DNA of 64,000 nucleotides from an uncultured Planctomycetia bacterium (lineage in GTDB: Bacteria > Omnitrophota > Gorgyraeia > 2-02-FULL-51-18 > JAGOUK01), in contig CAYSFB010000001.1 in NCBI GenBank assembly GCA_964430735.1, positions 232,674 to 296,673 of the forward strand, given 5' to 3'. The translations under genes and the position numbers were made by a program. Shown here piece after piece: positions 2,523 through 64,000 of this stretch (positions are counted from its first letter, which is position 1; every line of letters starts with the position of its first letter). Below the pieces are notes generated by a model. The model was not told where the DNA came from. It did not search any database and saw nothing but the letters and a program-made list of their open reading frames with translations.

Positions 2523-2903
2523 TTACGAGTTTTCTTTGGCGTGTAACTGAATGAGCTCGAGCAGATAAGGCCTGTCTTCTTCGGACAAGGATTCGAATTC
2601 GGCTCCGATTTCGTAGATTCTTTCGGACCCACCGATCCATGCGCACCAGCGGATGCGCACCGAAGCGGCGATATCGCGGCGGAGCGTGTGGAGACGGACC
2701 GGATAGACCTCACCCGGATCGAGCCGGACGGAAGTTCTGAAGCCAATGCCGCACTCCGAAAGATCCGTGATGTTGAGCACGAGAGGACCTTGAGGCAATC
2801 CCTTGGTATCGATCCGGATCAGGTTGACCGCGGCGACTCTCAGGTGCCGCCTCCGATGGTCCGTACCCGCTTCGATATCCAGGAACCAGTTTTTGATACT
2901 CAT
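2523..2903 (-). CDS. PilZ domain protein (c-di-GMP receptor candidate)
   Basis: RRRHLR (RxxxR) and DLSECGIGF (D/NxSxxG) PilZ motifs. Its ATG overlaps the TGA of the upstream priming GT (ATGA at 2900-2903). Confidence 0.75.
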   Translation of the reverse strand: MSIKNWFLDIEAGTDHRRRHLRVAAVNLIRIDTKGLPQGPLVLNITDLSECGIGFRTSVRLDPGEVYPVRLHTLRRDIAASVRIRWCAWIGGSERIYEIGAEFESLSEEDRPYLLELIQLHAKENS

Positions 2904-7823: not shown

Positions 7824-8474
7824 TTAGAACAGGGACTCCGGAACGTAAATGGAATCACCCCGGGAAATGGCCGGATCTTCCGCGCGTCCTTCGAGCACAT
7901 CGAACAGATTGTACACCTTGGTCTGGCGGGTTCCGGTCGCATACGACACGACTTTAACGGCACGCGGATTGGCGGAAACGCCGAATCCACCAGCCTGCGC
8001 AATCGCCTGAAGGAGGGTTGAACCCTCGGGATTCAGGGCTTGAAGCCCCTGGCTCTTCACCTGGCCGAGCACGATCACCGTATTGGCGTCCGCCGCTTGC
8101 GAGCCGTTGCTATTGATCGCCTCTTCGACATGGTCGATCCGGACCAGCGGATCTTTGATGAACTTTTTAAGACCCTCGGTCAGCGCCACCCTGAAGCTTT
8201 CCATCGACAGTCCGGCCGCCTGGGCTTCTCCGATCATCGGAAAAATGATCTTCCCTGTTTCGTTGACGCGGTACTGGCCGGTCAGATTCTTTTCGTTAAA
8301 GACATCAATGGCCAGCAGATCCCCCGTCGAAATGACTCGGTGGGCGGCTTGCGCGGTGGCGGACACAGGAGCCGTTTCGCCCGCGTCGGCGGCGCAGAGG
8401 GAGGCCGAAAACACCACAAGTCCGGATAGGGCCAGACCGAAAAATCGGCTGAGGCCTTTAGAATTTTTTTTCAT
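7824..8474 (-). CDS. short outer-membrane polysaccharide export (OPX/Wza-family, Poly_export+SLBB) protein
   Basis: Signal peptide MKKNSKGLSRFFGLALSGLVVFSASLCAA, then a Poly_export-like region and an SLBB-like C-terminus. Only 216 aa, so it lacks the Wza C-terminal OM helix. Track start 8534 trimmed to ATG 8474. Confidence 0.75.
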   Translation of the reverse strand: MKKNSKGLSRFFGLALSGLVVFSASLCAADAGETAPVSATAQAAHRVISTGDLLAIDVFNEKNLTGQYRVNETGKIIFPMIGEAQAAGLSMESFRVALTEGLKKFIKDPLVRIDHVEEAINSNGSQAADANTVIVLGQVKSQGLQALNPEGSTLLQAIAQAGGFGVSANPRAVKVVSYATGTRQTKVYNLFDVLEGRAEDPAISRGDSIYVPESLF

Positions 8475-9897: not shown

Positions 9898-9924
9898 AAA
9901 TGACGGCTGTTTTCAGCCCCCTGA

Positions 9925-10353
9925 TTACGGAGTTACGATGGTGCCGGACGGCGTTTCGACCAGCAGCAGGTTTTGGTTCGCCTCGACAATCTCGTCTTCT
10001 TGCGCGGCCGTGAGGTTCTCGCCCAGCGCCGCGATCGATTGCTGCTCCAGAGTCGCTTCTTCGATCTGAGTTTGCGCCTCTTCAACTGCCGCATTGAGCG
10101 CCGCGCGCTCGGAGTCCGTAATGCTGGAATCCGCCAATTTCGTCATTACCGCCGCCAAAGCCTCTTCCGCAAGCACACGGCCGTAGGACTTCAATCCGGC
10201 TTGGGCGTCCGCCTGGGTGTAGGGGCGGTAGGTCCCTGAGCCCTCGTCAAAAAACACCTTGTACGGGTTCTCGAAGGTCGGCTTCAGCGAAGCGGCCATC
10301 CCGGGCGCCGCGATTCCCAAACACAGAGCGAGAATCAATGCTGATTTTTTCAT
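9925..10353 (-). CDS. secreted hypothetical protein
   Basis: Signal peptide MKKSALILALCLGIAAPGMAAS; Ala/Glu-rich helical C-terminal half; no recognisable family. Confidence 0.5.
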   Translation of the reverse strand: MKKSALILALCLGIAAPGMAASLKPTFENPYKVFFDEGSGTYRPYTQADAQAGLKSYGRVLAEEALAAVMTKLADSSITDSERAALNAAVEEAQTQIEEATLEQQSIAALGENLTAAQEDEIVEANQNLLLVETPSGTIVTP

Positions 10354-11225
10354 GATTTGCTCCCGGTAGTCTTTTCATCCATGCTCAAGCTGAACATCAG
10401 TTCACCAGAAAAATTATGCACCTTTGTGCTGCCGTCCGGCTCAAGTGTTCCCACGGACATGACAGAATCGGGTCCCTCCAAACGGAACGTGAGCGGCGCA
10501 AAATCCGGTTGCAGCACCAACGTTTCCCCCGGAATCAGGCTTCTAAATTCACGGCCGGAAGCCGTAGGAACCGCGATCTCGGCCTTCTGTGCATGCAACA
10601 CGCGAAGGGTTTCTTGTGACTTCCTGTCGGAGCGCAAATAGTCAATCGCGGGACCCAGCTTGGCGATGACTTTGGCCGCACCGCGGGGAATCAATGAATG
10701 CGTCTTGATCTTTTCGGATCCGGAAACCAGCGCCGTGCTGCCGGACTCGAGGCTGATTTCCGGCTCACCGCCGACGGGGCGGATTCGGGCAGGGCGGCTG
10801 GAGTTGGCCAGCGAAACGAACGTGCTGTTCGCGCGGCTGAAAAGATAAATGTCGCCGAATCCGTTATCGGTCACGACCTCGAACTTTTCGGTCGCCAACG
10901 CGAGTCTTGGAGCGTCGCGGACGATCAGCTCGCCGACACGGAGTGTAATCTTGGTCTCCTGGAGCAATAGGGAGGAATTCTGAAATATTTGAAGATATCC
11001 ACCGCTGGCTTTTTGAAGAAAAAGCACCCCGCCCACATCGACGGTAATGCGCTCATCATCCAGCTTGGTCTGGGGAAGTAGCGTGCTGACCGCCTTACCC
11101 TGAACATCCGTGGTATAAGCGCCCGAAGCATACAAAACCTCGTACTCGGCTGCCTGGGCTGGCGCCGTTAGTCCAAGACTTATTAAAAACAAACCGATCG
11201 AGAAGCGTAAGGCCTTCATACTCAT
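10350..11225 (-). CDS. secreted hypothetical protein (alternative leaderless start at 11219)
   Basis: Signal peptide MKALRFSIGLFLISLGLTAPAQAA. The first ATG (11225) lies 1 nt after a TATAAT box; the third codon (ATG 11219) is 7 nt after it. Confidence 0.5.
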   Translation of the reverse strand: MSMKALRFSIGLFLISLGLTAPAQAAEYEVLYASGAYTTDVQGKAVSTLLPQTKLDDERITVDVGGVLFLQKASGGYLQIFQNSSLLLQETKITLRVGELIVRDAPRLALATEKFEVVTDNGFGDIYLFSRANSTFVSLANSSRPARIRPVGGEPEISLESGSTALVSGSEKIKTHSLIPRGAAKVIAKLGPAIDYLRSDRKSQETLRVLHAQKAEIAVPTASGREFRSLIPGETLVLQPDFAPLTFRLEGPDSVMSVGTLEPDGSTKVHNFSGELMFSLSMDEKTTGSKS

Positions 11226-11226
11226 A

Positions 11227-11254
11227 ATTATACATTTTTGTATATTAGAGTCAA
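11227..11254 (-). promoter_or_regulatory. near-consensus sigma70 promoter TTGACT-16-TATAAT
   Basis: Minus-strand reading gives ccaTTGACTctaatatacaaaaatgTATAATtATGAGTATG. The -10 ends 7 nt before ATG 11219, suggesting a leaderless transcript. Confidence 0.45.
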
Positions 11255-11295
11255 TGGAAGATTACTATAATATTAAATGTAAAAGCGGGTGGGCT

Positions 11296-13155
11296 CTAAG
11301 CGAACTTTTGCTCTTGCCAGGCCTGGTAGAACTTCCCCCTTAGAGCGAGCAGGTCGTCCATCGCGCCGGATTCCAGAGCTTTACCGTCTTCCATGTAGAC
11401 GATATGGTCGGCGTTTCGGATGGTCGAGAGCCGATGGGCAACCACAACGGCTGTTTGACCATGCATTAGCTCGTTTAACGCTTCTTGGACCAAGTTCTCT
11501 GTTCCCGAATCCAAAGCGCTGGTGGCTTCATCTAAAAGAAGGATTTGGGACTTTTTTAACATCGCGCGAGCGATCGATACGCGCTGACGTTCTCCTCCAG
11601 ACAGCGTAACGCCCCGCTCGCCAATCACGGTATGGATCCCGTCAGGGAGCTTCTGGACCACATCCAAAAGCCGGGCGCGTCGGATCGCTTCTTCGAGTTC
11701 GCCCGCATCCACGTCGCGCTCGATACCGAAGAGGAGATTGTTTTTGAGGGTGTCCGCAAAAATCACCACATCCTGACTGACCCAGGCAACCCTCCTTCGC
11801 AGCGAGTCGATCGAATATTCCCGGATATCGATCCCGTCAATCAGAATCGCGTCCGGCGCGCAGTCATAGAAGCGCAGTAAAAGATGAATGATGGTTGATT
11901 TGCCGGCCCCACTGGGTCCGACCAGCGCCGTCATTTTTCCGCGCGGCAGCTTGAGATGAAGCCGCTTCAAAATCGGCTGACCGCCGCCGTAGCCGAATGT
12001 AAGATCTTTGACCTCGATCCCCTGCTTCAGAGACTCGAACTCCCGGACTCCGCCCTTCACATACGGTTTTCCCTCATCTTCCAAAACCTCGAGCACTTCG
12101 CGGATCGGGCTGGCAACCGATGCCAAATCGGCCTTGAACTGGTTGAAGACATGGACGGTGTAAATCATGCGTCTGAGAATATAAAAGAAGACGATGTAGG
12201 AAGCCGCCGATGCGGCCTGATGCCGGGCCATCAGCACCGACATGAAGCCGAGCATGATCAGCAAAAAAACCAGCGAAAGAATTTCCTGGGCCGGCGGAAC
12301 GATCAGCCGCTTTTGATCAATGCTGAATTCGGCGGTGAGGAGCCGCTCGCTCAGGCGACGGTATTCGGCCGTCTCGAGCTTTTCGGAACACTGGGATTGG
12401 ATCAGCGGAATCCCTTGAAGGATATTCACCGTTTTTTGGCTGAGAGCGGCGCGCGCCGAGCGGTCGGCTTCCGAGGATGTTTTAATCCGGTTGATGAGCG
12501 ATCGAAGTGAGAGCATGAGGAGCGGGATCATCAGCAACGCCACCAGCGTCAGCTGCCAGGAGATGATGCAGATCCCCGCCGCATAAATCAGAATCAGGAA
12601 CACGGCGCTCAACAGTCCGTTCAGACCAGAAAGCGCCTGCATGATGCGGACCGGATGGGTCATCAGCACTTGAGCCACTTCGCCGGTGCCGGCGCGGTCA
12701 AAATAAAGCTTTCCGAATTTGAGGTACCGATCGATCAGGAGTATCCGGAGATCGTGATTGAGCTTTCTGGCCTGATGCCAAAGAATAATTTGACTGAGGT
12801 AGGTCGCCAGACTCTTCAGAGTCATGGCCGCCACGAGCGCCAGAATCAGCAGTGCAAAAAGAGCGGTATTGGAAGACTGGGCCTCCGCCGGAAGCAGAGC
12901 GGTCACGTGCCGGATCATCGACGATTGATTCACGAATGAATAGTCGTGGGCCAAAAAACCCTGGATCAGCGGCGTCATCACAATCAGGGCCATCGCCTCG
13001 AAGGCGGAAGCGGCCAGCGCAAAGAACACCGGAACCATGATGTGTTCCGGACGCGCTTTGAGCGCCGACAAGAACTTGACTACTTTGATCGAGCCCTCGT
13101 AGAGCGCGTTCTTATTTTTCATGTTTGAAGACAAACTGGGGTAGTTTTTGAACAT
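11296..13155 (-). CDS. fused TMD-NBD ABC exporter (MsbA/PglK-like) within polysaccharide locus
   Basis: Six-TM N-terminal domain; Walker A GPSGAGKST; signature LSGGERQRVSIARAML; Walker B ILLLDEATSALD. An alternative ATG at 13122 (MKNKNALYEG) would reduce overlap with the upstream GT2 gene. Confidence 0.8.
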   Translation of the reverse strand: MFKNYPSLSSNMKNKNALYEGSIKVVKFLSALKARPEHIMVPVFFALAASAFEAMALIVMTPLIQGFLAHDYSFVNQSSMIRHVTALLPAEAQSSNTALFALLILALVAAMTLKSLATYLSQIILWHQARKLNHDLRILLIDRYLKFGKLYFDRAGTGEVAQVLMTHPVRIMQALSGLNGLLSAVFLILIYAAGICIISWQLTLVALLMIPLLMLSLRSLINRIKTSSEADRSARAALSQKTVNILQGIPLIQSQCSEKLETAEYRRLSERLLTAEFSIDQKRLIVPPAQEILSLVFLLIMLGFMSVLMARHQAASAASYIVFFYILRRMIYTVHVFNQFKADLASVASPIREVLEVLEDEGKPYVKGGVREFESLKQGIEVKDLTFGYGGGQPILKRLHLKLPRGKMTALVGPSGAGKSTIIHLLLRFYDCAPDAILIDGIDIREYSIDSLRRRVAWVSQDVVIFADTLKNNLLFGIERDVDAGELEEAIRRARLLDVVQKLPDGIHTVIGERGVTLSGGERQRVSIARAMLKKSQILLLDEATSALDSGTENLVQEALNELMHGQTAVVVAHRLSTIRNADHIVYMEDGKALESGAMDDLLALRGKFYQAWQEQKFA

Positions 13156-13870
13156 TTTTCAAAAAAACCGTCCACATAGGATGAGGAATGCCGGCTGCCC
13201 TGCAAATCCTGAGGTCCTCCAGGGACTTTTGCGCCATGGCGCCGATGTTACGGTTGCTGGCTCCGCCGAGTCTCATGCGCACGCAAAGCCGGTCCAGGTA
13301 ATGCGTCGAAATCCCCTCCCGGTACAAAAGCCGGAGCATCAGCTCGTAATCCGCGGCGATCCGGTACCGGACGTCGTATCCGCCGTAATCGCTGTACAGC
13401 TGGCGCTTCACAAAAAATGCCGGATGCGGAGGCATCCACCCGCGGAGCATCTGCCGCTTGCCGCCAATTCCTGATTTCCAGTACCGCACCGTGCGCTGGA
13501 GATCGGTCCGGCGCACATACGCCACATCACCGTACACACAATCGGCGCCCGTGACCTCAAATGCTTTGACGACGTCGGCAAGGACGGATGGATCGGCGTA
13601 AGCGTCGTCTCCATTCAAGACGGCGATCACGTCGCCGGTCGCGCACCCGATCCCCTTATTGATTCCTTCGTACATCCCGCCGTCTTTTTCCCGGACATAC
13701 CCGGCCAGCCGGCTCCCGTACTCTCGCACCACCTCCGGAGTGTTATCCGTCGAACAGGCGTCAATCACCCAATGCTCGATATCGGGGTGCGTCTGATCGC
13801 GAACGCTCTGAAGGCAGGACGCAAGCGCCGGGCCGCAGTTGAGAGACGCGGTGATGACCGATACCTTCAA
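13112..13870 (-). CDS. glycosyltransferase family 2
   Basis: MKVSVITASLNCGPAL...DACSTDNT...NGDD (DxD-type) GT-A fold motifs. TTG is the only in-frame start after the upstream stop. Confidence 0.8.
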   Translation of the reverse strand: MKVSVITASLNCGPALASCLQSVRDQTHPDIEHWVIDACSTDNTPEVVREYGSRLAGYVREKDGGMYEGINKGIGCATGDVIAVLNGDDAYADPSVLADVVKAFEVTGADCVYGDVAYVRRTDLQRTVRYWKSGIGGKRQMLRGWMPPHPAFFVKRQLYSDYGGYDVRYRIAADYELMLRLLYREGISTHYLDRLCVRMRLGGASNRNIGAMAQKSLEDLRICRAAGIPHPMWTVFLKNVQKLPQFVFKHEK

Positions 13871-13877
13871 CGGGAGA

Positions 13878-14429
13878 TCACGCGCTCATTTTTCTCGGTC
13901 GAACCGCTTGCGCCGGATTGCCCGCATAAATGGTCCAGGCCTCCAGATGGCCGGTAGCCACACTGCCGATGGCCAGCACGGCGCCCTCTCCGACGGTGAC
14001 GCCGGACGCGACGATGGAGCGGGCGCAGATCCAGCACCCCTTCTCCAAACGGATGGGAGATGCGGTCAGGCGGAAGGCCGGGTCGGTCCAATCATGATTG
14101 CCGTTTCCGATATACGCGCCTTGCGAAATGCAAACGTCCGAACCGATCTTCACGGACACGATATTATCAATCCATACGCGCTCGCCGATCCAGGAGTCGT
14201 CGCCGATCTCAAGCTTCCAGGGATATTTGACGTGCACGGACGGCTTGATCACGACTCCCCGCCCGATTTTGGCGCCAAAGCCGGTCAACACCGCCCGTTT
14301 GACTCCGCTCCAGACGCAGAGCGGGTTCCGCAGCGTCAACAGGCTTGTGATTTGCCAGCAGGCGTCGATCAGGATCGAGCGCCCCCGAACACCGGGTTCC
14401 GGTCTAAAATTTTTATTGTTGATCTGCAT
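13878..14429 (-). CDS. hexapeptide-repeat acetyltransferase (WcaF-like)
   Basis: Left-handed beta-helix repeats (IGDDSWIGERVWI, IGSDVCISQGAYIG). Trimmed to ATG 14429 (MQINNKN). Confidence 0.75.
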   Translation of the reverse strand: MQINNKNFRPEPGVRGRSILIDACWQITSLLTLRNPLCVWSGVKRAVLTGFGAKIGRGVVIKPSVHVKYPWKLEIGDDSWIGERVWIDNIVSVKIGSDVCISQGAYIGNGNHDWTDPAFRLTASPIRLEKGCWICARSIVASGVTVGEGAVLAIGSVATGHLEAWTIYAGNPAQAVRPRKMSA

Positions 14430-14514
14430 GTGCCGGCCTCCGCTCCGCATATTTGATCTTCATCCCTGCCGCATCCATCATATCCCACGAAGCTCTGTTT
14501 TGGGACGGGCGCCG

Positions 14515-15696
14515 TCAGGACGCCAACCGCTCCAGCGCTTCGGCGGCGGGATTGCTCCGCTCGTCCCAACTCAAATGTTCGAGAACATAGTCGTGCCCGG
14601 TTCGGCCCATCGCTTCGGCGCGAAGCGGATCGGCGAGTAAACGGTTCACCGCTTCCACAAGCGCCTCCGGGTCCGGCGACGCAATCAGCCCCATCGCGCC
14701 GTCCAGCTGCGGCCAGCCGCATCCGGGAGACGCAACGACCGGAATGCCGTAGCTGAGGGCCTCGGGGATCGTCAACGGCTTATCGTCCGCTGACGGCAAT
14801 ACGAACAAATCCGCCGAGCAGAACATTTCCTCTTTGGCTTTGCCGGCCACCGCGCCGGCAAAAGTCACGCTCCGGTCCAGTCCGAGCCGGGCGACCTCGT
14901 TCCGGATCTGCCGCATGTAATCCTTGTCTTCGACGGGTCCCGCGGCGATCAGCCTGGCATCAGGATTCTTCGCCAAAATCCCCGGCATGGCGCCAATCAG
15001 ATGAACGAGTCCTTTCTTCGGGTGAATCCGCCCCAGATAAAGAATGACGGATTCGCCGGCCTGGCGGCTGTGACGGGCGGCTTCGCGCTTTTCGCGGGCG
15101 GCCTTCACGGCGGCGCGATGTGTGCGCGGCAGATAGACACTCCGGTCGGGGTGCCGGATTCCGCTGCGATCCATGATGCCGAACTCGTCCTCGCGCATGA
15201 CAAAAACGGCACGTGCACGGTCGAGATTGTTTTTTTCGAACAGATTCCAATAAATTTTTTTCCGCAAAGGCTTCTGAGCCAGACTCCAGGGGGTCAGCAT
15301 GTTGTGTGTGAACACAACGTACGGAATACCCCTTCGGGCGCACTCGGCGGCGGCAAACGTGCACGGAAATCTCCACAAGCCGTGGATGCACACCATTTGA
15401 GAGCGCTCCGCCAGCACCCGGAACCGGCTCACAAAATCGGGCGAATACGCCAAAGGCAAGCCTGAAGCACCAGCCAGCCGGACCGGAATATCGACGGTCC
15501 GGCCGCCGGCCGGACGGATGCAAACACGCTCGGTTCCGCCCAAGCCCGGGGCTCCGATCGCCAGAATCGTCACCGCGTGACCGCGGGTTCGCAATGCCGC
15601 GGACAATTCGCCGATCAGCTCGACGGGCCCGCCGACCTGCGGCCCCCAATAGGAGACCACCTGAAGCACGTTCAGACGGCGCGCGTCCGGACTCAT
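14515..15696 (-). CDS. glycosyltransferase family 4 (GT-B)
   Basis: N-terminal domain LNVLQVVSYWGPQVGG and C-terminal EGLG-like motif. Start set at the ATGA overlap (15693-15696) with the upstream gene's stop. Confidence 0.8.
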   Translation of the reverse strand: MSPDARRLNVLQVVSYWGPQVGGPVELIGELSAALRTRGHAVTILAIGAPGLGGTERVCIRPAGGRTVDIPVRLAGASGLPLAYSPDFVSRFRVLAERSQMVCIHGLWRFPCTFAAAECARRGIPYVVFTHNMLTPWSLAQKPLRKKIYWNLFEKNNLDRARAVFVMREDEFGIMDRSGIRHPDRSVYLPRTHRAAVKAAREKREAARHSRQAGESVILYLGRIHPKKGLVHLIGAMPGILAKNPDARLIAAGPVEDKDYMRQIRNEVARLGLDRSVTFAGAVAGKAKEEMFCSADLFVLPSADDKPLTIPEALSYGIPVVASPGCGWPQLDGAMGLIASPDPEALVEAVNRLLADPLRAEAMGRTGHDYVLEHLSWDERSNPAAEALERLAS

Positions 15697-17015
15697 GTCC
15701 GCAAGCCTGCGGCCCATTTTCGGCCGCGCTTGGTCATTCCAAAATAATCACGGCGAACCCACAGCAGCAAAAAACACGGCCAAAACGCCATCCCCGTCCA
15801 CGCGATGACTCCGGGCAGATCGCCTCCGCGCAAGAGCGGTATCAGCACCGCGCAAAAAATGGCCTGCACCATAAGACCCGGGAACGGCCGGATCTCAAGG
15901 CTGTAATTCATAATCGCGGCAAAAAGCGCTCCATAAATCACGGACAGCAGCAAAATACCGATCCATCCGCCCTCCGCATAAAATGTTCCGATCAAAGTCG
16001 GAGAAATTCCCACCGTCCCCTGCCCGTCATCGATCGTCCAGCCCAATTTATTCATATACCCGCCGACGGGTTTGTTGTGCCACCAGGCGCGCGGAATCGG
16101 TCTCAGGAGCACTTCCAGATGCTCGCCTCCTTTGGAGTACGGAAGCATCTTGGGGTAAATTTGCCGCAACATGACGAACCCGTCCAGCATATTGGCGTCT
16201 TCCGCCTGGATGGCCCGCTGTATCGACAAGTCTTTGAGAGCTTGAGATTGGTCGTAAGTTTTAATGGTGCGCACGCTTCCAGAAGCCGAAAAAGCCGTCA
16301 ACGCCGCGACGCCGACCAAGGCATAAACGATGACCTTGATGCGGGGCTGAAGCCCCGCGGTCACGACCATTGCAGACGCGATGATCCATCCCAGTAATTG
16401 GAAACGTCCGTAAGGCTGGAACGTCTGAAAAATAAAGGCGATCACAACCATGAGCCCGAGAGACTGGGTCAGCGGAATCCTGAAATATCCGAACTTCCAC
16501 AGCAAAACGGTCAGCAGCATGATGCCGATCATGACCATGGGAAACAGGGACAGGTATCCGCTGATATCAAACGCCTGCGAAGCGCCTTGAATCACCTGCT
16601 CCATCACCTGGCGGCGCAGCATGATCACCATAGGCAGACATGCCGCCCCGAACAGCAGAACTTGGGGTCCAAGCCAGTTTAAAAAAGCCCGGTCCGGCAC
16701 CGTTCGCAAAATATGCACCGGCTTTCGGCGTGCAAAACAGTACGTGATCAGTAAAATCGTCTGCCCGAGGATGATATAGAGCAGCGCTTCGCGGGCCGCC
16801 TCGGAAGAGATTGGATCAAAACTCCATTCGTCTGACATGACCACCCAACGGCCGATGCCCGACGTCGCCGAAAAATAACGGTAAGCGCCCGAATACAAAA
16901 GGAAGCTGCTGATGATGAGCGGGACGACGTCGTTCATGCTAATCAACCAATACATCCCAAAAACCGTCAGAACGACCTGGATCCCTAGAAGAATGTCAAA
17001 ATCAAGTATGGGCAT
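15693..17015 (-). CDS. wzy: Wzy-like oligosaccharide repeat-unit polymerase (polytopic membrane protein)
   Basis: About 10-11 TM helices plus one large periplasmic loop with RPIPRAWWHNKP; no nucleotide-binding motifs. Trimmed to ATG 17015 (MPILDFDILLG), which overlaps the upstream stop. Confidence 0.6.
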   Translation of the reverse strand: MPILDFDILLGIQVVLTVFGMYWLISMNDVVPLIISSFLLYSGAYRYFSATSGIGRWVVMSDEWSFDPISSEAAREALLYIILGQTILLITYCFARRKPVHILRTVPDRAFLNWLGPQVLLFGAACLPMVIMLRRQVMEQVIQGASQAFDISGYLSLFPMVMIGIMLLTVLLWKFGYFRIPLTQSLGLMVVIAFIFQTFQPYGRFQLLGWIIASAMVVTAGLQPRIKVIVYALVGVAALTAFSASGSVRTIKTYDQSQALKDLSIQRAIQAEDANMLDGFVMLRQIYPKMLPYSKGGEHLEVLLRPIPRAWWHNKPVGGYMNKLGWTIDDGQGTVGISPTLIGTFYAEGGWIGILLLSVIYGALFAAIMNYSLEIRPFPGLMVQAIFCAVLIPLLRGGDLPGVIAWTGMAFWPCFLLLWVRRDYFGMTKRGRKWAAGLRT

Positions 17016-18225
17016 CGCATGCTCCGATAAGTTGACGCCCCAACCGGCTGATTCCGGACCCGGATGGCAAAACCGACCGGTCCGACTGTGCCTTGAGCCG
17101 GGAAGGATTAAGGAGATAGGACCGCAGCGCATCGGCGACGGCCTTCCCGCTGATCTCCCTGAGAACCGTGCCGTTTTCTCCGTCCCTCACAACAGCGCCG
17201 CAACGATCCGAAACGATCAGCGGCAGACGGTGCGCCTGCGCTTCAAGCTGCGTCAGGGCAAACCCGTCGGAGTGCGTCGGCAAAATAAAGACGTCCGCAG
17301 CCCGGTAATGGCCGGCCGCTTCCAACCGGCTCACCCGGCCCCGAAGACGCACGTTGGCGCATCCGGCAAAAAGCCCGTTCACGGCCGCATCCGCCGGACC
17401 CACGACGGAGAATTCAACCGGCTGCCCCTCAAGCATCCGGGCCGCCTCCGCCAACTCGGCCGCACCTTTCCGGAGACCCACCTGGCCCAAAAAAAGAACG
17501 CGCAAAGGGCGGTCGTGCGAAAAAGTCGGAGGATAGGAACGGGGGGCTAAGGATGCGGATCCGGCAGAATCATAAGCCAGCGGGATGGTGACGATTTTAC
17601 GCGCCGGCACTCCGGCCCGCCGCAATCCCTGGGCGGACCAATCGGAATTGACGATGATGATGTCGGCGAGGGCAGTTTCTTCGCGCCAATCGTCCCAATA
17701 GCCGGACGGGACGGGGTCAGGGGCCGGGACAATCCCAGCGTACTTGGCGTACAACTCGCGGACAATCTCTTCCTCATACGGACCTGGATCGATTTGACCC
17801 AGCACCGTCGTCCAGCCCGAGGCCTTGGCAAAACGGAACGGCTTCAGCGCCGTATAGCTGTAAGAAAATAGAATCTGGCGATTTTTTTTTGATTCCGAAA
17901 CGAGCCCGGACAATCGGGCAACACACCGGTCCTGGAACCAGCGGTTGCGGGCCAGAACCTGCGCCCAGCCCCGGACACCTTTGAGCCGCAACCCGCCTTC
18001 GAGCGCAAGCAGACGGCCGGTGAATGCGTGGACAGGGGCCGACGCCAGAGCGGAATCGAACCGTCCCTTTAAGGCGTTTGAATGGGCCCACACGGATTTG
18101 GGCCGAACCCAAGCGTCGGTAAGCAAAGCGCTGAGCCGGGACTCGAGATGCAGCGCGCGGGGAATCGCATAATGCTCCCGCGCGCCCAACTGGCAACAAA
18201 TCCAGGATCGGGACCGGTCAGACAT
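17002..18225 (-). CDS. glycosyltransferase family 4 (GT-B)
   Basis: GT-B C-terminal domain with ...FILPTHSDGFALTQLEAQAHRLPLIVSDRCG. Trimmed to ATG 18225 (MSDRSRSWICC). Confidence 0.75.
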   Translation of the reverse strand: MSDRSRSWICCQLGAREHYAIPRALHLESRLSALLTDAWVRPKSVWAHSNALKGRFDSALASAPVHAFTGRLLALEGGLRLKGVRGWAQVLARNRWFQDRCVARLSGLVSESKKNRQILFSYSYTALKPFRFAKASGWTTVLGQIDPGPYEEEIVRELYAKYAGIVPAPDPVPSGYWDDWREETALADIIIVNSDWSAQGLRRAGVPARKIVTIPLAYDSAGSASLAPRSYPPTFSHDRPLRVLFLGQVGLRKGAAELAEAARMLEGQPVEFSVVGPADAAVNGLFAGCANVRLRGRVSRLEAAGHYRAADVFILPTHSDGFALTQLEAQAHRLPLIVSDRCGAVVRDGENGTVLREISGKAVADALRSYLLNPSRLKAQSDRSVLPSGSGISRLGRQLIGACDAHT

Positions 18226-19342
18226 GGTCCGCGGCGGGTTGGTGCATGTTTCCAAAAATGTTCTGATCGATGGCCTCAAACCAGCCGACAGCCAATTCGC
18301 GCGTACCGGCTTCGTTGAAATGTACGAAGAGGGGGCCCTCCCGGTACCGGGCTTCCGCCAGACGGTCCGTGTCGGGCCCGCAGATGACCGTTCCGTCCAG
18401 GCATAGCTGCCGCTGCGCGGTCCGAACCGATTCAGAAGTCACGCGTCCGTTGTAGGTCGAAACCGCGACCATCCAGGGAATGTCGACGTCCGACCGGTCG
18501 CGGGCAGACTTGATGATTTGAACGAGGCGGTCCCGGTACTCTTCGGTGCTCATGTGCCCGTCCGACTCGCCCTGCGCCCACAACACGGCTCTCGCGCCGT
18601 TGGGACCCGCGGCCTTCATCGCCTTCACGAGGCGATTGAAGTTTGCGCTGCCCGGCTCCCATTTGCGGATACTGCTTCCACCCTCGGCGACATTGATCCA
18701 TCCCACCGGCACACCGAGTTTTTGAACCAACAGATCTCCCGTCAGCGGCCAATGCGATCCGCCTCCTCCGCGAATCTGCGGATCATCCCCCCGCATCCAC
18801 CGCAGACTCCCGTCCGCCTGAACCTGCCCCTTCCGCACGTCATCGCTCGTTGCCTGAAAAAGGGTCGAGCTGCTTCCGGAGGCATTCGATTGACCCGCCA
18901 CCAGAAACACCTCCCCCGCTCCCAACATAAGACTGTTGGCGGACCGAAATCCCTCGCCATGACTGCGGCCGAAGATACGGCTCCATCCGTCTTGAACCTG
19001 GACATTGCCGGCAAAACGCGACATCTTGGGTGCGGCATCCAAAGATACCCAATCCTCCGGCCGGACAGGGTCTTGAGCACGGGCTGGCGGCATGACGCAA
19101 ACTTCCACGGACTTGGCCCGGATTCCGCACCGGCCCAAAAGACTCACAACGGTTCTTTCGCCGTCGGAACGCTGGATCACCTGGCCGTCCTGAATATCCC
19201 AGGAATAAATCTTCGTACCCAGACAGAACCGATCGCGGAGAACTTCGTCGTACTTCAGGATTCCCAGAAAGGCCGCGAATGCGGTGACGGTCAACAACGC
19301 CGGGACAGCCAAACGCGCAGGGGTCCGGTGGGACGTTGGCAT
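18218..19342 (-). CDS. membrane-anchored carbohydrate esterase (DUF303/sialate-O-acetylesterase-like, SGNH-type)
   Basis: N-terminal TM anchor and the FLVAGQSNASG motif (GQSNMxG-like) of DUF303 esterases. Confidence 0.55.
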   Translation of the reverse strand: MPTSHRTPARLAVPALLTVTAFAAFLGILKYDEVLRDRFCLGTKIYSWDIQDGQVIQRSDGERTVVSLLGRCGIRAKSVEVCVMPPARAQDPVRPEDWVSLDAAPKMSRFAGNVQVQDGWSRIFGRSHGEGFRSANSLMLGAGEVFLVAGQSNASGSSSTLFQATSDDVRKGQVQADGSLRWMRGDDPQIRGGGGSHWPLTGDLLVQKLGVPVGWINVAEGGSSIRKWEPGSANFNRLVKAMKAAGPNGARAVLWAQGESDGHMSTEEYRDRLVQIIKSARDRSDVDIPWMVAVSTYNGRVTSESVRTAQRQLCLDGTVICGPDTDRLAEARYREGPLFVHFNEAGTRELAVGWFEAIDQNIFGNMHQPAADHV

Positions 19343-19872
19343 TACTGGAGGCGGTAGGTCAAATTCTTGTTGCGGGTGCCGATGGGGCGGGCGGGATTAC
19401 CGGCGACGATCGTATAGGGGTCCACGTTCTTTGTCACCACGGCGCCGGCGCCGATCACCGCGCCTTCGCCGATGGTCACGCCGGGGAGAATCACGGCGCG
19501 GTAACCGATCCATGCCCGGTCGCCGATGACGACGTCGCCTCCCCGGTCTTCGAATCCGGGTGACTGCGGATCGTGCCCCAATGTCAGTATGGAAGCTTCG
19601 GGCCCGATCGAAACGTCGGACCCGGTGATGATGCGATAAGTGCGTCCGTCAAGCATGCATCCGGAGTTCACGACATTGCGCTCTCCGAGAAACACCTTGC
19701 GTCCGTTCAGAAAATTGCAGCCCCTCAGAACGTCGGTGCCGGCGCCGAGTCGGCCCAGATACATCCCCAAATACACGCGGCGCAAGATACGGCTCGGAAA
19801 TTTGCCGATCCAGCCGGCGTACAGATAGCTGGCCAAAGACCCGAACATCAGTCTGAAGTTCATCGCCGCCAT
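19342..19872 (-). CDS. hexapeptide-repeat O-acetyltransferase (WbbJ/maltose-acetyltransferase-like)
   Basis: [38 protein letters not shown]. The first ATG overlaps a TATAAT box; the 4th codon (ATG 19863) lies 7 nt after it, making it a leaderless candidate. Confidence 0.75.
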
Positions 19873-59184: not shown

Positions 59185-59300
59185 TGCTTATCTCTTTTTA
59201 CGAGGAGGCGGTGAGACCCGACCTTAGGTCGAGGGCGCGTATATTAGCACAGGGACTTTGCGGGAGGGAAGGAAAAATTTGGGCGGCGGCAAAAAGCCGC

Positions 59301-59699
59301 TTATCGGGTCCAATCCACGATCTGCAGACCGGGAATACGGCTGAACTCGCGCGTATTATGGGTCACCAGGGTCCCATGATGGGCCAGCGCCGTCGCGGCG
59401 ATCACCAAATCTGCCGTGCCGATGATTTGACCTGATTTTGCAAGGATTGAACGGATTTCCGCGTACGCGCCAGCAGCCAGTCCGTCGAAAGGAACAGTTT
59501 CGTAGGGCGCCAAAAAAGTTTCGAGCTCCTGAGCCGATCGCAGGGGGTCGCGGGATGCCCGGACCCCCGTCATGAGTTCCGCTTGGACCATCGAAGGCAT
59601 CTTGACATCACGAGGTGGCAGCTTTGCGAGCTTTTCCTCACAGGAAAACCTTCCACGCAGGATAAAAACGCAAATATCCGTGTCTAAGAAGTAGGTCAC
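59301..59699 (-). CDS. vapC: PIN-domain toxin VapC
   Basis: MTYFLDTDICVF..., conserved acidic residues of the PIN fold. GTG start overlaps the vapB stop (GTGA). Confidence 0.8.
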   Translation of the reverse strand: MTYFLDTDICVFILRGRFSCEEKLAKLPPRDVKMPSMVQAELMTGVRASRDPLRSAQELETFLAPYETVPFDGLAAGAYAEIRSILAKSGQIIGTADLVIAATALAHHGTLVTHNTREFSRIPGLQIVDWTR

Positions 59700-59935
59700 A
59701 GCTTTGGAACCGGGCGGTCGTATTTGGGGTCGATGTCTTCCGGCAACTCAATATCCACGGGATTATTTTTTAATGACCGTAGCCATTCGAAGTACCCCGG
59801 CGGCCACCCCTTGTGAGTCAACGAAGCCTCCAGTTTGGACTTGACCCATTTAGACACAGAAGTCCCCTCCCTCTTCGCTTCCATGTGAATTTTTTTGAAT
59901 GTATTCTCATCTATATAGACGGTCAACTGCGCCAT
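59696..59935 (-). CDS. vapB: antitoxin VapB-like
   Basis: 79-aa ORF translationally coupled to vapC; GAGGTG RBS; palindromic operator in its promoter. Confidence 0.6.
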   Translation of the reverse strand: MAQLTVYIDENTFKKIHMEAKREGTSVSKWVKSKLEASLTHKGWPPGYFEWLRSLKNNPVDIELPEDIDPKYDRPVPKL

Positions 59936-59955
59936 ATTTATTCACCTCTGAAAAA

Positions 59956-59984
59956 ATTATATATCCCTGCATTAAATATATCAA
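59956..59984 (-). promoter_or_regulatory. vapBC promoter TTGATA-17-TATAAT
   Basis: Minus-strand reading gives acTTGATAtatttaatgcagggataTATAATtttttcagaggtgaatATG. Confidence 0.45.
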
Positions 59985-60005
59985 GTATATGTGCACATAT
60001 ACTTG
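59982..60005. promoter_or_regulatory. 24-bp perfect palindrome CAAGTATATGTG|CACATATACTTG (candidate VapB/VapBC operator)
   Basis: Exact dyad symmetry; its promoter-proximal arm overlaps the -35 hexamer. Confidence 0.5.
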
Positions 60006-60056
60006 CATATTCACAAAGTATGACTGGCAGAAAATTGGCGTTCTAAAGAATGGATA

Positions 60057-63000
60057 TTATGCGGCCGAATCGACCGACTGGCGAATGATGTCCAGGTATC
60101 GGACAAGCTCATTGAGCATACGCGCGAGGGTCGGCAGCTCAATCTTCTGAAGGGCTTTAAAATATTCCTCGGTCATTTCTATGTGAAACACCAATCGGAT
60201 CGCTTGAGGTCCGACTTCTCCCAACAAGGATCGGGAGCCCATCTCAAAATCACTGAATTGCTCATAGGCCTTATTCATATCGCCGTTTGTCCGCTTTTTG
60301 ATACCCGCAAATGCAAAACCGCGCAAATGACCAAAAGGCAGATCCGCCATCTCTCCCGGTTCGGCAACCGGCTTTACCGGGCTCACGACCGCATATTTGT
60401 TAATAAACTCGGCCGTCTGAACCGTTGCACCGTCAGCCGCAATGAATTCCGCCGGAAGTTTTTTGAACAACGCCTGGAGCGCATCGGAACTCATGGTGAA
60501 CACAATCATCTCCCCGCGTACCGTGACCGCCTCGTACATTGCTTGAAGAAGATCCGGAATGCCGGGGGTCAGATGATAAGAAACGTCGTATAAGTCCTGA
60601 TGATCTCCTTTCACATCCGTCGTCAAGATCGAGATAGGCGCGCCCAACCGGCTGTCCCAGGAATCTATTTGCTCCTGGACCCGGGCATGCCCTTCCGCTG
60701 AATCCCGACTTGAACCCACATCAGAGAGATCCGAAATCGTCAGGATAGGAACGGGGGGGAGGGACTGCTCAACCCGCTTGAATCTCCGCACCAGATTCGT
60801 GACGCTTCTGCGGATTTCGCCAAACAGACTCCGCGCATAAGAGAGAGACAATTCCGCCGCTCCCGTCGGATCGATGCCCGTCGAACGCATATTCCCCTTG
60901 CGCGGCAGAGGGAAGCGGGTCTTGCCTGACGCAGCGAACATATTGCCGTTTTGATCGATCTCGATTATGACGGTCAATTTTTGAGTCTCGCTCACAGCAA
61001 GCGGCAGCGCCTCCCCCGCCTTCACCGCATCATGTGCGACCGCTTCGGACACAGGCCCTGTTACTACCGCCTCAGCCAGTGCCACGTCTTGATCGGGAAG
61101 TTTTGCTCGATCATCCAAAAGCGCGTGGGGTCCGTCAGCCAGCCGTGCGCCATAACCGATCTGTCTGGCGGATGCCTCAGGCAAAGTCGCAGCTATTTTG
61201 GATAACTTATCCACAAACGTATTCAGCGCGCGGGTGGCGTTCGCTTTGTCAAACTCCGGGTTCGATGCTTCGTAAAAAATGCTTAGCTCATGCCGCTTTG
61301 CGCTTAACGTCACCAAGGCCTCGAATGCGCGGTCTAGTTTTAGATTTTGCAAAGCGGAGATAATGTTGAGCGCGGCGGTCTGATAGGACTCGACTTTGAA
61401 CCGAAGACTGGTGTTGGAATCCGAATCCTGTTCCAAATCGGAAATCGGCGCATGAGCCCTGTCAAACCTGATGCTCGCGGCTAATGCGGCGAGGTTGGAC
61501 AAAGTACCGTAAAGCTTCTGAACATCAGAATCATAGATGGTTCGCAAATCATCCTGGATCTGACTCAGATCCGTCAGTCGGCCCGAAAGGTCCGCCTTCG
61601 ACGGATGCATCCGGATAGTCGAGGGCTTACCAGTCTTCTTATCGATCCGCTGAACCCTCGCGGGCGGAGTCAGGCTGCGAATCGCTAGATCCAAATGAAA
61701 CGTAAGTTTGTGCAAATCCTCGACGGTCTCATCACCCCGCACGCTCTCGGGTCCGTCCTGCACCACCGCCATCCGGGCTCCGCCGGGCATGATTGGCAAT
61801 CCGGCGACAGCGGACTTTATCTGCTCGCCGTCCTTGCTGAGAGTTTGATAGGCGGCGGCTATTTTTTTATTCAGATCCCCGGCCATGGCCGGCTCTTTGT
61901 TGACCAGCCCCAGTTTTGGATCATTAATGTCTCGATAGAGCATGATCAAACGATCAAGCAAAGTGCCCACGTCTCTCCGCTCCTTGTACCCGAGTTCGAT
62001 CCCGCCCCGGGCATTCAAAAGTGTGAGATAACTCAGCAGTATTGTCCGGATCGTCCAAAGACCGTTAGGATTGGGAGCATATCCGGGGGACGTGAGATTG
62101 GGGGATCCGATTACAAACCATGCCAACCATGCCATGTCGGGCTCCGAAAGCATCAGATCCGGCACATTGTCAAATCCGGCCTCACCCCTAACAAAAGTCA
62201 ACCTGGCCGACCCGTCCGCATTCGGCTTAAGCACCGTACTCATATTCTCAACGATGCTTTTATAATCCTGTACCTTAACGATAACATGCATAACCCTGGC
62301 AATCGCAGACTCGACTTGACGGACGGCCTCCTCCACGTCTTTCACATTGTCGGTCACCGCCAGCCGAGAGCCGTCTGTTGTTTTGGGAAGATGCTTCAGC
62401 TGCTCGTCGGCCGCGTGATAGTACATGCTCGACGGGTCGTTGGCCCATTGCTCAAGCAGACCGACTATTTGCCGCCGCTCGTCGCTTTTGCCGGTCCCGA
62501 TGTTCATACGAGTCAGCGGGTCGCTGGCCAGCAGCTCCCGATACCGTCTCATCAAATAATCGGTAAATGCCTTTGCGACCATCGGCTTAAATATGGGGTA
62601 GACCTTGAGGCGACTGGCGGCCCGGACTTCCTCAACGGTGAGATCAGCAGGCATATCCTTCACCGCTCCGACCCGCAGAATTTGCAGAAACAGGTCATAA
62701 TTGACATCCCTCGGCCTTCCTCCGCGCTTCTCCTCAAGAATCCGGCGGGCGTTGGCAATTCCTTCTTTATGAAAAAAGTTGTCCGCCTTCAGGTATTCGG
62801 ACGAACCGGTGTGCGCGTAAAGCTGGACCAAAACTGCATTGAGCGCTTTTTCATCTTCATACCACCGAATCCTCGTGTCGAGAAGCCCGTCCACCGCGCT
62901 GCCCTCCCAGCGATCGTTGGCGACTTCGTATTGAAGCCCTTTGACAACCGCCTCGGACTTGCTCCGCCACTCCGTATTCGGGCTCTCCAAGCCCGCCAGG

Positions 63001-63953
63001 ATAGCGCCCCAATACTCCTCTTGAGACTTAAAGTGAGGATAGGCCCATGTCTCGTCGATCGCGGACACAACTTTATGAGCGTCATTGGTTCGAACGCCTT
63101 CATGCAGTTCATGCAGAACTTGGGACGTCCAGTCCTTTCCGAAGCGTGCTTTGAGGTAAAGCGAATTCGAGTGGAACCACAGCGTTATGGATATCGCCGT
63201 GACACCCAGGAGCATTTCCGCCATCGTAAACTGCAGCCGGGCCCACCTCTTAACCGCGTCAACAGCCCGCAAAGCCAGGCGGGAGCCTTTGGGGAGGAGC
63301 GACTCCAAATGATCGAGCCAGTTGTCGTGGCCCGGGTATCGTCCGTCCGTAACTCGAGTGATGTGGGTCAGAAACTGTGCGGCAGAAACCAGCATCCGCT
63401 CATCGTTGTCGCCATACTCTCCGGCAAGATCGACGTACTCTATGGAGTTGATAAACGTTTCCCATGACATGATGACCCGAAGATCGTCCGTTTGAGAGAG
63501 CACCCGCTCCTCGAATGTCTTCAGCCGCTCATTGATCATTTCCGATAGAAGTTTGCTTGCGCTAGGATTCAAGGAGCCGTCGTACAACGTTTGCATGCTC
63601 TCTATGCTGGCTTTCGTCGCAACAATCCACGTTCTCATGGCATCTGCCGCGTCGCCGTTGATCGGTGTGCCGTCGGGTCGCTTGCCAAAAACTTTTCTCG
63701 ATTCTCGGATCAGCGCCAACTTCATCCCTGGGGTCCAGTGCAGGATAAGTTTCTGAAGCTCTGTCTCTCTGATCAGATTCAATGACAACCCTGACAGCAA
63801 GTCGCTGTCTTGATCGTACATCCTGGAGACCTTCAGCGCGGCGACGATGAGCAGGACCAGCTTGGAGCCGATTTGGCGCTGTTCCTCCGCGGTGATTTCG
63901 TAACCGCCAACAGCCGCCGCTTCTCGCAGCGCCTTCCAAACACTGTGATGCAT
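60057..63953 (-). CDS. very large hypothetical protein (1298 aa or more; frame stays open to the window edge so the N-terminus may lie outside)
   Basis: Single uninterrupted ORF of about 50% GC inside a roughly 65% GC genome. No P-loop, HExxH, GxSxG or other recognisable catalytic motif, only one possible TM segment; mostly alpha-helical composition. Confidence 0.6.
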   Translation of the reverse strand: MHHSVWKALREAAAVGGYEITAEEQRQIGSKLVLLIVAALKVSRMYDQDSDLLSGLSLNLIRETELQKLILHWTPGMKLALIRESRKVFGKRPDGTPINGDAADAMRTWIVATKASIESMQTLYDGSLNPSASKLLSEMINERLKTFEERVLSQTDDLRVIMSWETFINSIEYVDLAGEYGDNDERMLVSAAQFLTHITRVTDGRYPGHDNWLDHLESLLPKGSRLALRAVDAVKRWARLQFTMAEMLLGVTAISITLWFHSNSLYLKARFGKDWTSQVLHELHEGVRTNDAHKVVSAIDETWAYPHFKSQEEYWGAILAGLESPNTEWRSKSEAVVKGLQYEVANDRWEGSAVDGLLDTRIRWYEDEKALNAVLVQLYAHTGSSEYLKADNFFHKEGIANARRILEEKRGGRPRDVNYDLFLQILRVGAVKDMPADLTVEEVRAASRLKVYPIFKPMVAKAFTDYLMRRYRELLASDPLTRMNIGTGKSDERRQIVGLLEQWANDPSSMYYHAADEQLKHLPKTTDGSRLAVTDNVKDVEEAVRQVESAIARVMHVIVKVQDYKSIVENMSTVLKPNADGSARLTFVRGEAGFDNVPDLMLSEPDMAWLAWFVIGSPNLTSPGYAPNPNGLWTIRTILLSYLTLLNARGGIELGYKERRDVGTLLDRLIMLYRDINDPKLGLVNKEPAMAGDLNKKIAAAYQTLSKDGEQIKSAVAGLPIMPGGARMAVVQDGPESVRGDETVEDLHKLTFHLDLAIRSLTPPARVQRIDKKTGKPSTIRMHPSKADLSGRLTDLSQIQDDLRTIYDSDVQKLYGTLSNLAALAASIRFDRAHAPISDLEQDSDSNTSLRFKVESYQTAALNIISALQNLKLDRAFEALVTLSAKRHELSIFYEASNPEFDKANATRALNTFVDKLSKIAATLPEASARQIGYGARLADGPHALLDDRAKLPDQDVALAEAVVTGPVSEAVAHDAVKAGEALPLAVSETQKLTVIIEIDQNGNMFAASGKTRFPLPRKGNMRSTGIDPTGAAELSLSYARSLFGEIRRSVTNLVRRFKRVEQSLPPVPILTISDLSDVGSSRDSAEGHARVQEQIDSWDSRLGAPISILTTDVKGDHQDLYDVSYHLTPGIPDLLQAMYEAVTVRGEMIVFTMSSDALQALFKKLPAEFIAADGATVQTAEFINKYAVVSPVKPVAEPGEMADLPFGHLRGFAFAGIKKRTNGDMNKAYEQFSDFEMGSRSLLGEVGPQAIRLVFHIEMTEEYFKALQKIELPTLARMLNELVRYLDIIRQSVDSAA

Positions 63954-64000
63954 TCCAAAGTAGTGGTTCGGCCTCGGAGCCCGGATGATCAGAGTATTGG

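Follow-up and report, generated by a model that had tools for sequence, protein, structure and literature searches.

The stretch of DNA analysed in this work, called the window from now on, covers 64,000 nucleotides of contig CAYSFB010000001.1 (positions 232,674 to 296,673), from an uncultured bacterium placed by GTDB in the Omnitrophota, and it ends within a giant gene on the minus strand, next to a vapBC toxin–antitoxin pair and a housekeeping operon. What the window shows of this gene is the 3' part of a resident chromosomal gene in an Omnitrophota-type chromosome, and the full protein belongs to a large lineage-specific family, apparently undescribed, whose members carry a conserved N-terminal head followed by a hypervariable tail. 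The initial annotation, made from the window alone, had described one clean reading frame that is still open at the window edge, and this was borne out: the frame 60057..63953 encodes 1,298 amino acid residues (aa) counted from its first ATG, and the 47 bases between this ATG and position 64000 contain no in-frame stop. The missing portion was recovered through a look-up with the VapB protein, which led to contigs in three metagenome runs that belong to a single study. Among these, L001 matches the final 14,001 bases of the window with 100% identity and reaches 5.9 kb beyond it, adding the 1,188 codons that the window lacks. The full gene has 2,486 codons (L001:2419-9879), the window part corresponding to residues 1189-2486 in the numbering used below, and upstream of it on L001 lie the C-terminal end of secA and then lnt.

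The full protein starts with MGAYFKHKLRVISILTLLSFAAHDAAWA followed by APG, which has the form of a Sec-type signal peptide (…AAWA/APG), and there is no cysteine among its 2,486 residues. Its description as domain-less holds for the part in the window, which, like the full protein, gave no significant match in Pfam, NCBIfam, PADLOC, PHROG or PDB-sequence searches, but not for the full protein, which has the signal peptide and a domain predicted to adopt the TIKI fold. At most one transmembrane-like segment had been seen in the window part, and indeed a single, weakly hydrophobic one was found there (FTMAEMLLGVTAISITLWF, mean hydropathy 1.57). A pentapeptide described below as the linker motif occurs at residues 643, 1411, 1716, 1913 and 2123, the last four positions being inside the window, which gives the gene the following features:

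60057..64000, minus strand: C-terminal part of the giant gene, with its last 1,298 codons and 15 further open codons (stop codon 60057-60059); orphan 'cargo' part of a predicted TIKI-headed cassette protein
63273..63287, minus strand: linker GSRLA, residues 1411-1415, at the end of cassette 2 (residues 648-1415) and before cassette 3
62358..62372, minus strand: linker GSRLA, residues 1716-1720, between cassette 3 (305 aa) and cassette 4
61767..61781, minus strand: linker GARMA, residues 1913-1917, between cassette 4 (197 aa) and cassette 5
61137..61151, minus strand: linker GARLA, residues 2123-2127, between cassette 5 (210 aa) and cassette 6 (359 aa)
60060..60095, minus strand: C-terminal tail LDIIRQSVDSAA-COOH, a helix with the family-typical [AS]A ending (protein end …SVDSAA)

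A search of the window for a second member of the family found none. Opposite the giant gene, an antisense open reading frame (ORF) of 590 aa from its ATG occupies positions 61695-63467 of the plus strand, in all likelihood a shadow ORF produced by GC-rich coding sequence.

The conserved head and the cassette tail

The first ~555 residues of the giant protein, which lie outside the window, match 38 proteins, 650-2,080 aa long, with identities that reach 70%; no match continues beyond this head, and the named proteins among them all come from metagenome-assembled genomes (MAGs) of Candidatus Omnitrophota. When GTDB species were scanned, each through a single genome, at least 449 family copies were confirmed by tblastn, with up to nine copies from a single MAG within the best 80 listed loci, and many members exceed 3,200 aa. 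The family follows a fixed plan, consisting of a signal peptide, conserved across the family, a conserved head of ~480 aa, a hypervariable cassette tail and a short helix ending in [AS]A-COOH, with almost no cysteine throughout. The signal peptides of paralogues are strikingly similar (K/R-x-[IL]-[RK]-x-[IL]-[SA]…[ED]-x-[AS]-[WYF]-A-A-P, the acidic residue of the c-region being conserved), a likeness suggestive of a possible dedicated step of recognition, additional to the usual Sec pathway and signal peptidase I. Members may also lie in tandem or close together, as in L004:6620-12742 and L004:12889-20784, in L009 (starting at 3111 and 7980), or in L030 and L031, which are on one contig; the second L004 gene encodes 2,631 aa with no cysteine, ends in …AVRMAA and has a GH116 glycosidase cassette. 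As for taxonomy, the record titles of many genomes with family members read 'uncultured Planctomycetia', and that of one reads 'Candidatus Eisenbacteria', as against Omnitrophota for all named protein matches, and the submitters' labels probably differ from the true placement.

A model of the head built with AlphaFold2 (AF2) on a 35-sequence alignment gives residues 40-530 a predicted local distance difference test score (pLDDT) above 90. It contains a small alpha/beta core interrupted by a helical insertion of ~300 residues between its two halves, and it shows the alpha+beta arrangement of a parallel beta-sheet core flanked by helices that characterizes the TIKI superfamily, the TIKI-fold effectors RRSP and HopBA1 being among its best structural matches. 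In 66 heads, D85, H87, N89, E115, E152, E168, R187, R454, D455 and G479-G-Y-H482 are invariant. The residues found experimentally to be essential in RRSP are E3900, H3902, E3930, R4001 and H4030 (PMC6254334), and the corresponding residues of the head, the candidate catalytic set D85, H87, E115, R454 and H482, come in the same order and at closely similar distances, with 28 residues from His to Glu in both proteins, and 28 from Arg to His in the head versus 29 in RRSP. Weak matches to the Pfam family Cofac_haem_bdg PF04187 ('Tiki superfamily, ChaN') were obtained for 17 of the 66 members (E 0.0039) and to PF18950 for nine of them (E 7.7e-4), and a profile search of the head against PDB sequences returned nothing. 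The head is, according to its model, a divergent domain of TIKI/TraB/ChaN/erythromycin-esterase fold, and it looks as if it had kept a working active site and would be active.

Beyond the head, what members share is the pentapeptide [GA][AS]R[LM][AS] ('GARMA', 'GSRLA'). It occurs 263 times in 74 tails (116,713 residues), versus 5.2±2.2 times in shuffled tails; all heads together contain two copies, and the conserved proteins encoded nearby in those genomes have a single copy in 44,083 residues. These counts exclude that it is a by-product of composition. Among neighbouring ORFs of at least 300 aa that do contain it, most, including all multi-copy ones, resemble truncated tails of further members. 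The codons used for its Arg vary (CGG, CGC, AGG) and therefore the pentapeptide is conserved at the protein level. The possibility that 'GARMA' represents an internal translation start (GGAG…ATG) was also discarded, given that about two thirds of the sites have Leu (CTG) in place of Met and that the Arg and Gly codons vary. Its copies are spaced by a median of 286 residues, about the size of a domain, and the first one stands ~20-80 residues past the head in most members (residue 643 in the giant protein). The other feature in common is the C-terminus: a C-terminal helix ending in [AS]A-COOH was found in 18 of 23 complete members versus five of 217 neighbouring ORFs, the sequence logo being drawn from 37 distinct tails.

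Every Pfam domain found in the tails falls entirely between two pentapeptides. Thus, a GNAT domain (residues 630-740) lies between motifs at 588 and 759, a methyltransferase (1623-1681) between motifs at 1438 and 1726, and an HATPase domain (1196-1274) between motifs at 1108 and 1416, and a DnaJ domain begins nine residues after the start of a motif at 1361. Tail blocks common to two members begin no more than 15 residues from a motif in 38% of cases, versus 10% for random points, and the same cassette may take a different ordinal position, as between L025 (2420-2982) and L030 (641-1190), with motifs on both sides in each. Because shared blocks start near motifs and sit at different positions, the tails are, judging from their sequences, strings of shuffled cassettes that move between paralogues and positions. 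The recognisable cargo is sparse and varied. It includes protein kinases, GNAT acetyltransferases, methyltransferases, an LMWPc phosphatase, a histidine-kinase-like ATPase, NUDIX, DnaJ and FHA domains, as well as AAA_5, SNF2/ResIII, an M48 peptidase, a metallophosphatase, glutamate dehydrogenase (GDH), HEAT repeats and glycosidases of the GH5 and GH116 families, and most of these domains normally act in the cytoplasm. Matches to an intein splicing domain (PF14890) were also noticed within tail cassettes of P0022 (residues 1269-1326; 32.2 bits versus a Pfam cut-off of 35.8 bits) and P0023, which, if real, would point to protein splicing or Hint-type autoprocessing in some members.

The tail of the giant protein itself is an orphan. 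An exhaustive phmmer search with the C-terminal 1,200 residues as query recovered, out of 1.84 billion representative proteins, nothing but the protein itself, the residues above 600 show no similarity to any of 83 family members, and neither tandem repeats (searched with TRF) nor Rfam families nor PHROGs were detected in or near the gene. A word-index search with the window ORF and with residues 640-1420 also returned nothing, a result that is uninformative for long orphan queries, as the same search missed the query's own full-length protein, which was in the library. The four to five putative cassettes of the window are, at present, unique sequences. This situation raises the alternative that the tail is evolutionary debris, with the TIKI head as the sole functional part and the orphan sequence as a rapidly drifting appendix, possibly disordered, whose frame has stayed open through weak selection or mere chance. 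The ~1,840 residues without a detectable homologue would fit such a history, as would the very low confidence of an AF2 single-sequence model of the last 1,200 aa (pLDDT 35.8, mostly helical, too poor for a fold search) and the lower GC content at third codon positions (GC3) of the tail compared with the head, which would be expected under relaxed codon selection. However, a stretch of 5.5 kb at 55% GC remains free of stops, the absence of any cysteine in the tail (cysteine makes up 0.07% of the family tails versus 0.8-1.3% of neighbour proteins) needs selection, the motifs and the [AS]A terminus have been retained, and the tails of paralogues carry intact, recognisable enzyme domains. Debris is, therefore, regarded as an improbable explanation.

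Base composition and the locus in relatives

The initial annotation had reported a fall in GC content from about 65% to about 50% that begins in vapB and continues through the giant ORF. The fall is real, although smaller, from 0.605 in the window before position 59500 to 0.536 after it, and values of 0.44-0.49 are confined to vapB and the intergenic stretch, the giant gene inside the window being at 0.52-0.58. The difference sits at third codon positions: GC3 is ~0.62 in the tail of the giant gene, including all of the window part, versus 0.79 in fifteen reference genes of the window and 0.76-0.88 in the adjacent housekeeping genes. The step is located within the giant gene and outside the window, where GC3 passes from 0.80 to ~0.6 near codon ~600, and the 5' part of the gene is host-like in codon usage. 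A GC3 lower in the tail than in the head was observed in 42 of 55 family members, by 0.04 on average, and the difference of 0.175 in the giant gene is among the largest. Because the family spans genomes of 39-64% GC, it is plausible that the cargo was imported from a lower-GC relative, no donor having been found. The remaining window is ordinary chromosome, with a polysaccharide-synthesis cluster, dnaJ/dnaK/hrcA, hflX, clpB, ABC exporters and glnA. The polysaccharide cluster (positions 1-19400, with GT4, Wzy-like, Wzz-like and GT1 proteins, an ABC exporter and a SASA esterase) constitutes a second, compositionally softer region, several of its genes having a GC3 of 0.67-0.76, below that of the housekeeping genes.

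The placement of the giant ORF directly upstream of a vapBC pair with its own palindromic operator, and the adjoining core housekeeping operon, had been described correctly; the order of genes past vapC is glmU, prs, rplY, pth, rpsF, ssb, rpsR, rplI, dnaB, bamA, ompH. The features of the pair are these:

59956..60005, minus strand: vapBC promoter and operator, with a perfect 24-bp palindrome CAAGTATATGTGCACATATACTTG (60005..59982) over the -35 box TTGATA; promoter TTGATA-17-TATAAT, whose -10 box ends at 59956
59696-59935, minus strand: vapB-like antitoxin, 79 aa, with weak ribbon-helix-helix/Arc-like signals
59301-59699, minus strand: vapC PIN-domain toxin, 132 aa, with a GTG start and a 4-nt overlap with the vapB stop
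59283..59300, minus strand: terminator-like hairpin and T-run, directly 3' of vapC

The promoter is near-consensus for sigma-70 (11 of 12 positions match), and its palindrome was also scored as a hairpin in the terminator scan. The antitoxin had sub-threshold matches to Pfam DUF6364 (E 1.9e-4) and RHH_1 (E 0.09) and a match to a PHROG Arc-like repressor (E 1.3e-3), and the toxin matched the Pfam PIN family (E 5.5e-15) and two NCBIfam VapC models (125 and 66 bits, both under their equivalog cut-offs). For one and the same vapC sequence, the gene calls give 96 aa at L001:10345-10635 and 132 aa at L002:6318-6716; the shorter call is probably wrong, because the GTG start of the 132-aa version overlaps the vapB stop and this version covers the full PIN profile. 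The pair has what type II VapBC modules share, namely a small antitoxin gene overlapping a PIN toxin gene and a palindromic operator on a sigma-70-type promoter, with the antitoxin fold assigned weakly. It is an ordinary module, found at this locus in the source genome alone, and it would represent an independent addiction module that landed in the variable segment or travelled with it.

The same locus is preserved in relatives. The order secA-lnt-[member]-glmU-prs is found in L006, L085 and L086, and secA-lnt-[member] in L087 and L080; the family members at these five loci have 1,750, 939, 880, 1,081 and at least 166 aa, respectively (the last one ends with its contig), and their tails are unrelated. 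None of the five loci contains vapBC, and where the order continues to glmU, this gene lies directly downstream of the member. At the DNA level, homology between L001 and L006 comprises secA-lnt and codons ~57-552 of the giant gene, is then lost, and comes back 95 bp upstream of glmU. This leaves a genome-specific segment of 6.7 kb, with all cassettes and vapBC, that has no counterpart in L006, L085 or L086, and whose left border is found inside the giant gene, at codon ~552, its right border being at ~59172 (L001 position 10765 corresponds to window position 59171). Because relatives keep a member between secA-lnt and glmU-prs with different tails and without vapBC, the low-GC stretch is the swapped cargo region of a resident gene plus a vapBC insertion, and not a defence island. 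Family members in general are non-syntenic, chromosomal and multi-copy, scattered among housekeeping genes, and no conserved partner gene was found around their loci; the only recurrent neighbours are genes of the nuo operon, in one orthologue group. In this nuo-linked group, 15-17 of 79 loci (for instance L013, L016, L052 and L064) adjoin NADH dehydrogenase-like subunits A, H, I, J and K-N, according to a by-eye reading of the sequences.

These data bear on the proposal, put forward in the initial annotation, that the giant protein and vapBC form a horizontally acquired island of defence, effector or toxin cargo beside a housekeeping operon. It is true that the segment shows two of the signs of a genomic island, an atypical composition, with GC and GC3 below the flanks, and absence from the closest syntenic relatives, and that vapBC comes with its own promoter and operator. 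However, the PADLOC check gave no families for the giant protein, VapB or VapC, nor did the giant protein match any PHROG, and neither an integrase nor a transposase is among the called genes, the single tRNA lying at a distance of 24 kb (no search was made for direct repeats at the borders). Moreover, the left 'border' falls inside a gene with a host-like 5' third that is conserved at the locus in four related genomes, and this gene belongs to a chromosomal, multi-copy family. A discrete acquired island, with a role in defence, is consequently very unlikely. What stands of the proposal is a variable, compositionally odd segment and the direction 'effector or toxin cargo'. The finding named beforehand as the one that would overturn it, a known housekeeping protein conserved at this locus with matching codon usage, was obtained in part: the gene is indeed conserved there, but it does not encode a known housekeeping protein, and the codon usage of its tail is unlike that of the host.

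Candidate function and relation to known systems

The reading preferred here for the giant protein, a tentative one that falls somewhat short of an even chance, is that of a Sec-exported, self-processing multi-effector polyprotein. The chain would be exported through Sec and then cleaved at the linker motifs, the simplest candidate for the protease being the TIKI-type hydrolase head of the chain itself, with release of several cysteine-free cargo modules that would act outside the producer. Because the cargo is of cytoplasmic type and Omnitrophota have been proposed to be predators or parasites (PMC10066038), the target would probably be on or in a host or prey cell, following a MARTX-like logic.

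Several observations weigh against such a polyprotein. In the giant protein itself there are just five motifs in 2,486 aa, its end (…DSAA) is a loose fit to the family rule, and the window cassettes have neither a homologue nor a usable structure model. The motif could be, instead, a docking site or a structural linker. As regards the head, the first Glu of the TIKI set of two His and two Glu is replaced by an invariant Asp (D85), and the proposed catalytic equivalence is based on the order and spacing of motifs, not on superposed coordinates. The giant protein scores 13.6 bits against a gathering cut-off of 27.7, all the TIKI-family Pfam matches mentioned above being sub-threshold, and a Foldseek search of the head against PDB gave no significant match. 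The TIKI superfamily, furthermore, includes proteins that are not proteases, such as the Ere esterases and the haem-binding ChaN. Finally, no secretion genes flank the family loci, and no route for crossing the outer membrane was identified.

Two other explanations accept the head and the motif and depart from self-processing at different points. According to the first, the protein would remain uncut, as a giant exported scaffold of the surface or the periplasm (a coat, an adhesin or a tether), in which the motif is a flexible hinge or a partner-binding site and the TIKI head acts on the envelope or on the surface of a target cell. The signal peptide, the large size and the avoidance of cysteine fit extracellular structural proteins, GH5 and GH116 cassettes exist, cleavage at the motifs is a prediction, and a role as coat or adhesin has been proposed for other giant ORFs of Omnitrophota (PMC10066038; bioRxiv 10.64898/2026.06.07.730766). 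Nevertheless, tandem repeats were not found, and neither were adhesin-type domains such as Ig, cadherin or discoidin, the tail is predicted to be mostly helical, and cassettes that depend on ATP, NAD or acetyl-CoA (kinase, GNAT, SNF2, AAA, DnaJ, GDH) would be idle on a surface. In addition, the strictness of the motif, with its invariant Arg, [LM] and small residues, resembles a recognition site more than a generic hinge, and the scaffold is, on balance, unlikely. The second explanation maintains cleavage at the motifs and attributes it to a separate protease, such as a host enzyme or a periplasmic protease of the C-terminal-processing/PDZ type; the TIKI head would then be an effector in the manner of RRSP or HopBA1, or an export adaptor. 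PDZ proteases bind apolar C-termini, which both the natural [AS]A-COOH ends and the …[LM][AS]-COOH ends expected after a cut resemble. Likewise, the presence of RRSP and HopBA1 among the best structural matches of the head (PMC6254334) is what an effector role would predict. However, the head is the sole universally conserved part of the family and stands just upstream of the first motif in most members, an arrangement expected of a cis-acting processing domain, and no conserved protease gene neighbours the family loci, so that a separate protease is given a small chance only.

The comparison with known systems starts, for the self-processing polyprotein, with the MARTX toxins, which use type 1 secretion, carry glycine-rich N- and C-terminal repeats and contain a cysteine protease activated by inositol hexakisphosphate (InsP6). 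In MARTX, several effector modules are released by autoproteolysis, the built-in protease cutting the linkers between modules (PMC6254334). The family resembles them in being a very large chain, whose secretion is here deduced from the signal peptide, with unrelated modules in tandem and a content that is reshuffled, between strains in one case and between members, as cassettes between motifs, in the other. Besides, the MARTX effector RRSP shares the TIKI fold with the family head. In contrast, the family has an N-terminal Sec signal peptide and no repeats by TRF or Pfam, the giant protein has no cysteine and no match to the MARTX cysteine protease domain (CPD), the only conserved domain is the N-terminal TIKI-fold hydrolase, the linkers carry a defined pentapeptide, and there is no sequence homology to MARTX. 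Membership of the family in MARTX fails, therefore, on secretion type, repeats and cysteine protease. With the polymorphic toxins (Rhs/YD, CdiA, MafB, LXG) the family has in common a conserved N-terminal part joined, at a boundary motif, to a hypervariable C-terminal part swapped by recombination (homology within the family ends at ~residue 555), together with variable ends of atypical composition and the presence of several paralogues in a genome. However, those toxins have one toxin tip and a cognate immunity gene, whereas the family has from two to more than ten cassettes, with the motif at every junction, and lacks a conserved small gene downstream, vapBC being a toxin–antitoxin pair and not an immunity gene. 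No Rhs, VENN, LXG or PT domains were detected by Pfam in the giant protein, and membership among polymorphic toxins fails on immunity genes and trafficking domains.

The TIKI/TraB/GumN/ChaN/Ere superfamily (Tiki, RRSP, HopBA1, EreA-C, ChaN, PrgY/TraB) differs from the family head, which contains a helical bundle of ~300 aa between the halves of the core, has Asp for the first Glu and occurs in one chain with a signal peptide and cassette tails of giant size. The giant ORFs known from Omnitrophota, such as the 39,678-aa protein of Velamenicoccus and the proteins of more than 10 kaa (thousand amino acids) in preprints of 2023-2026, coincide with the family in phylum, signal peptide or membrane anchor, scarcity of domains, poor conservation and a proposed role in the attack on host or prey; they are, though, ten to fifty times longer, often with many transmembrane helices. 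The TIKI head, the linker pentapeptide, the cysteine avoidance and the [AS]A end do not feature in the descriptions of those proteins, nor does the 2026 catalogue of long Omnitrophota proteins mention them (bioRxiv 10.64898/2026.06.07.730766). No description of the head-plus-cassette architecture was found in the literature on Omnitrophota giant proteins, polymorphic toxins or TIKI-family terms. The family would be, in this sense, a modular or polymorphic type of secreted effector, built from parts not previously combined.

A more ambitious version of the polyprotein reading, which is considered somewhat doubtful, would make of the family a new principle of effector delivery, to date confined to Omnitrophota-type genomes, in which interchangeable cassettes flanked by G-[AS]-R-[LM]-[AS] stand behind a Sec signal and a TIKI self-processing protease, and the cysteine-free effectors cut from the chain, with small apolar C-termini, make their way into the cells of a host or prey. 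The cassettes maintained in this way, unrelated to each other, would number dozens to hundreds, and the helical insertion of the head would possibly be membrane-active. If this were true, the 1,298 aa of the window would represent four to five entirely new effector folds.

Significance for Omnitrophota

The Omnitrophota are widespread, uncultured nanobacteria whose big proteins have so far been unreadable. For their giant ORFs, the family supplies a grammar (head, tag, cassette, tag, cassette, tail), by which hundreds of giant 'hypothetical' ORFs are split into defined modules that can be tested individually. It also points to a specific candidate catalytic centre, which can be mutated, and to a candidate cleavage sequence. 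At the level of the genome, the locus illustrates that a low-GC 'island' beside a toxin–antitoxin pair need not be a mobile element and can arise when a resident gene has had its end swapped. The cassettes themselves constitute a large reservoir of orphan protein modules, which may be new effector folds.

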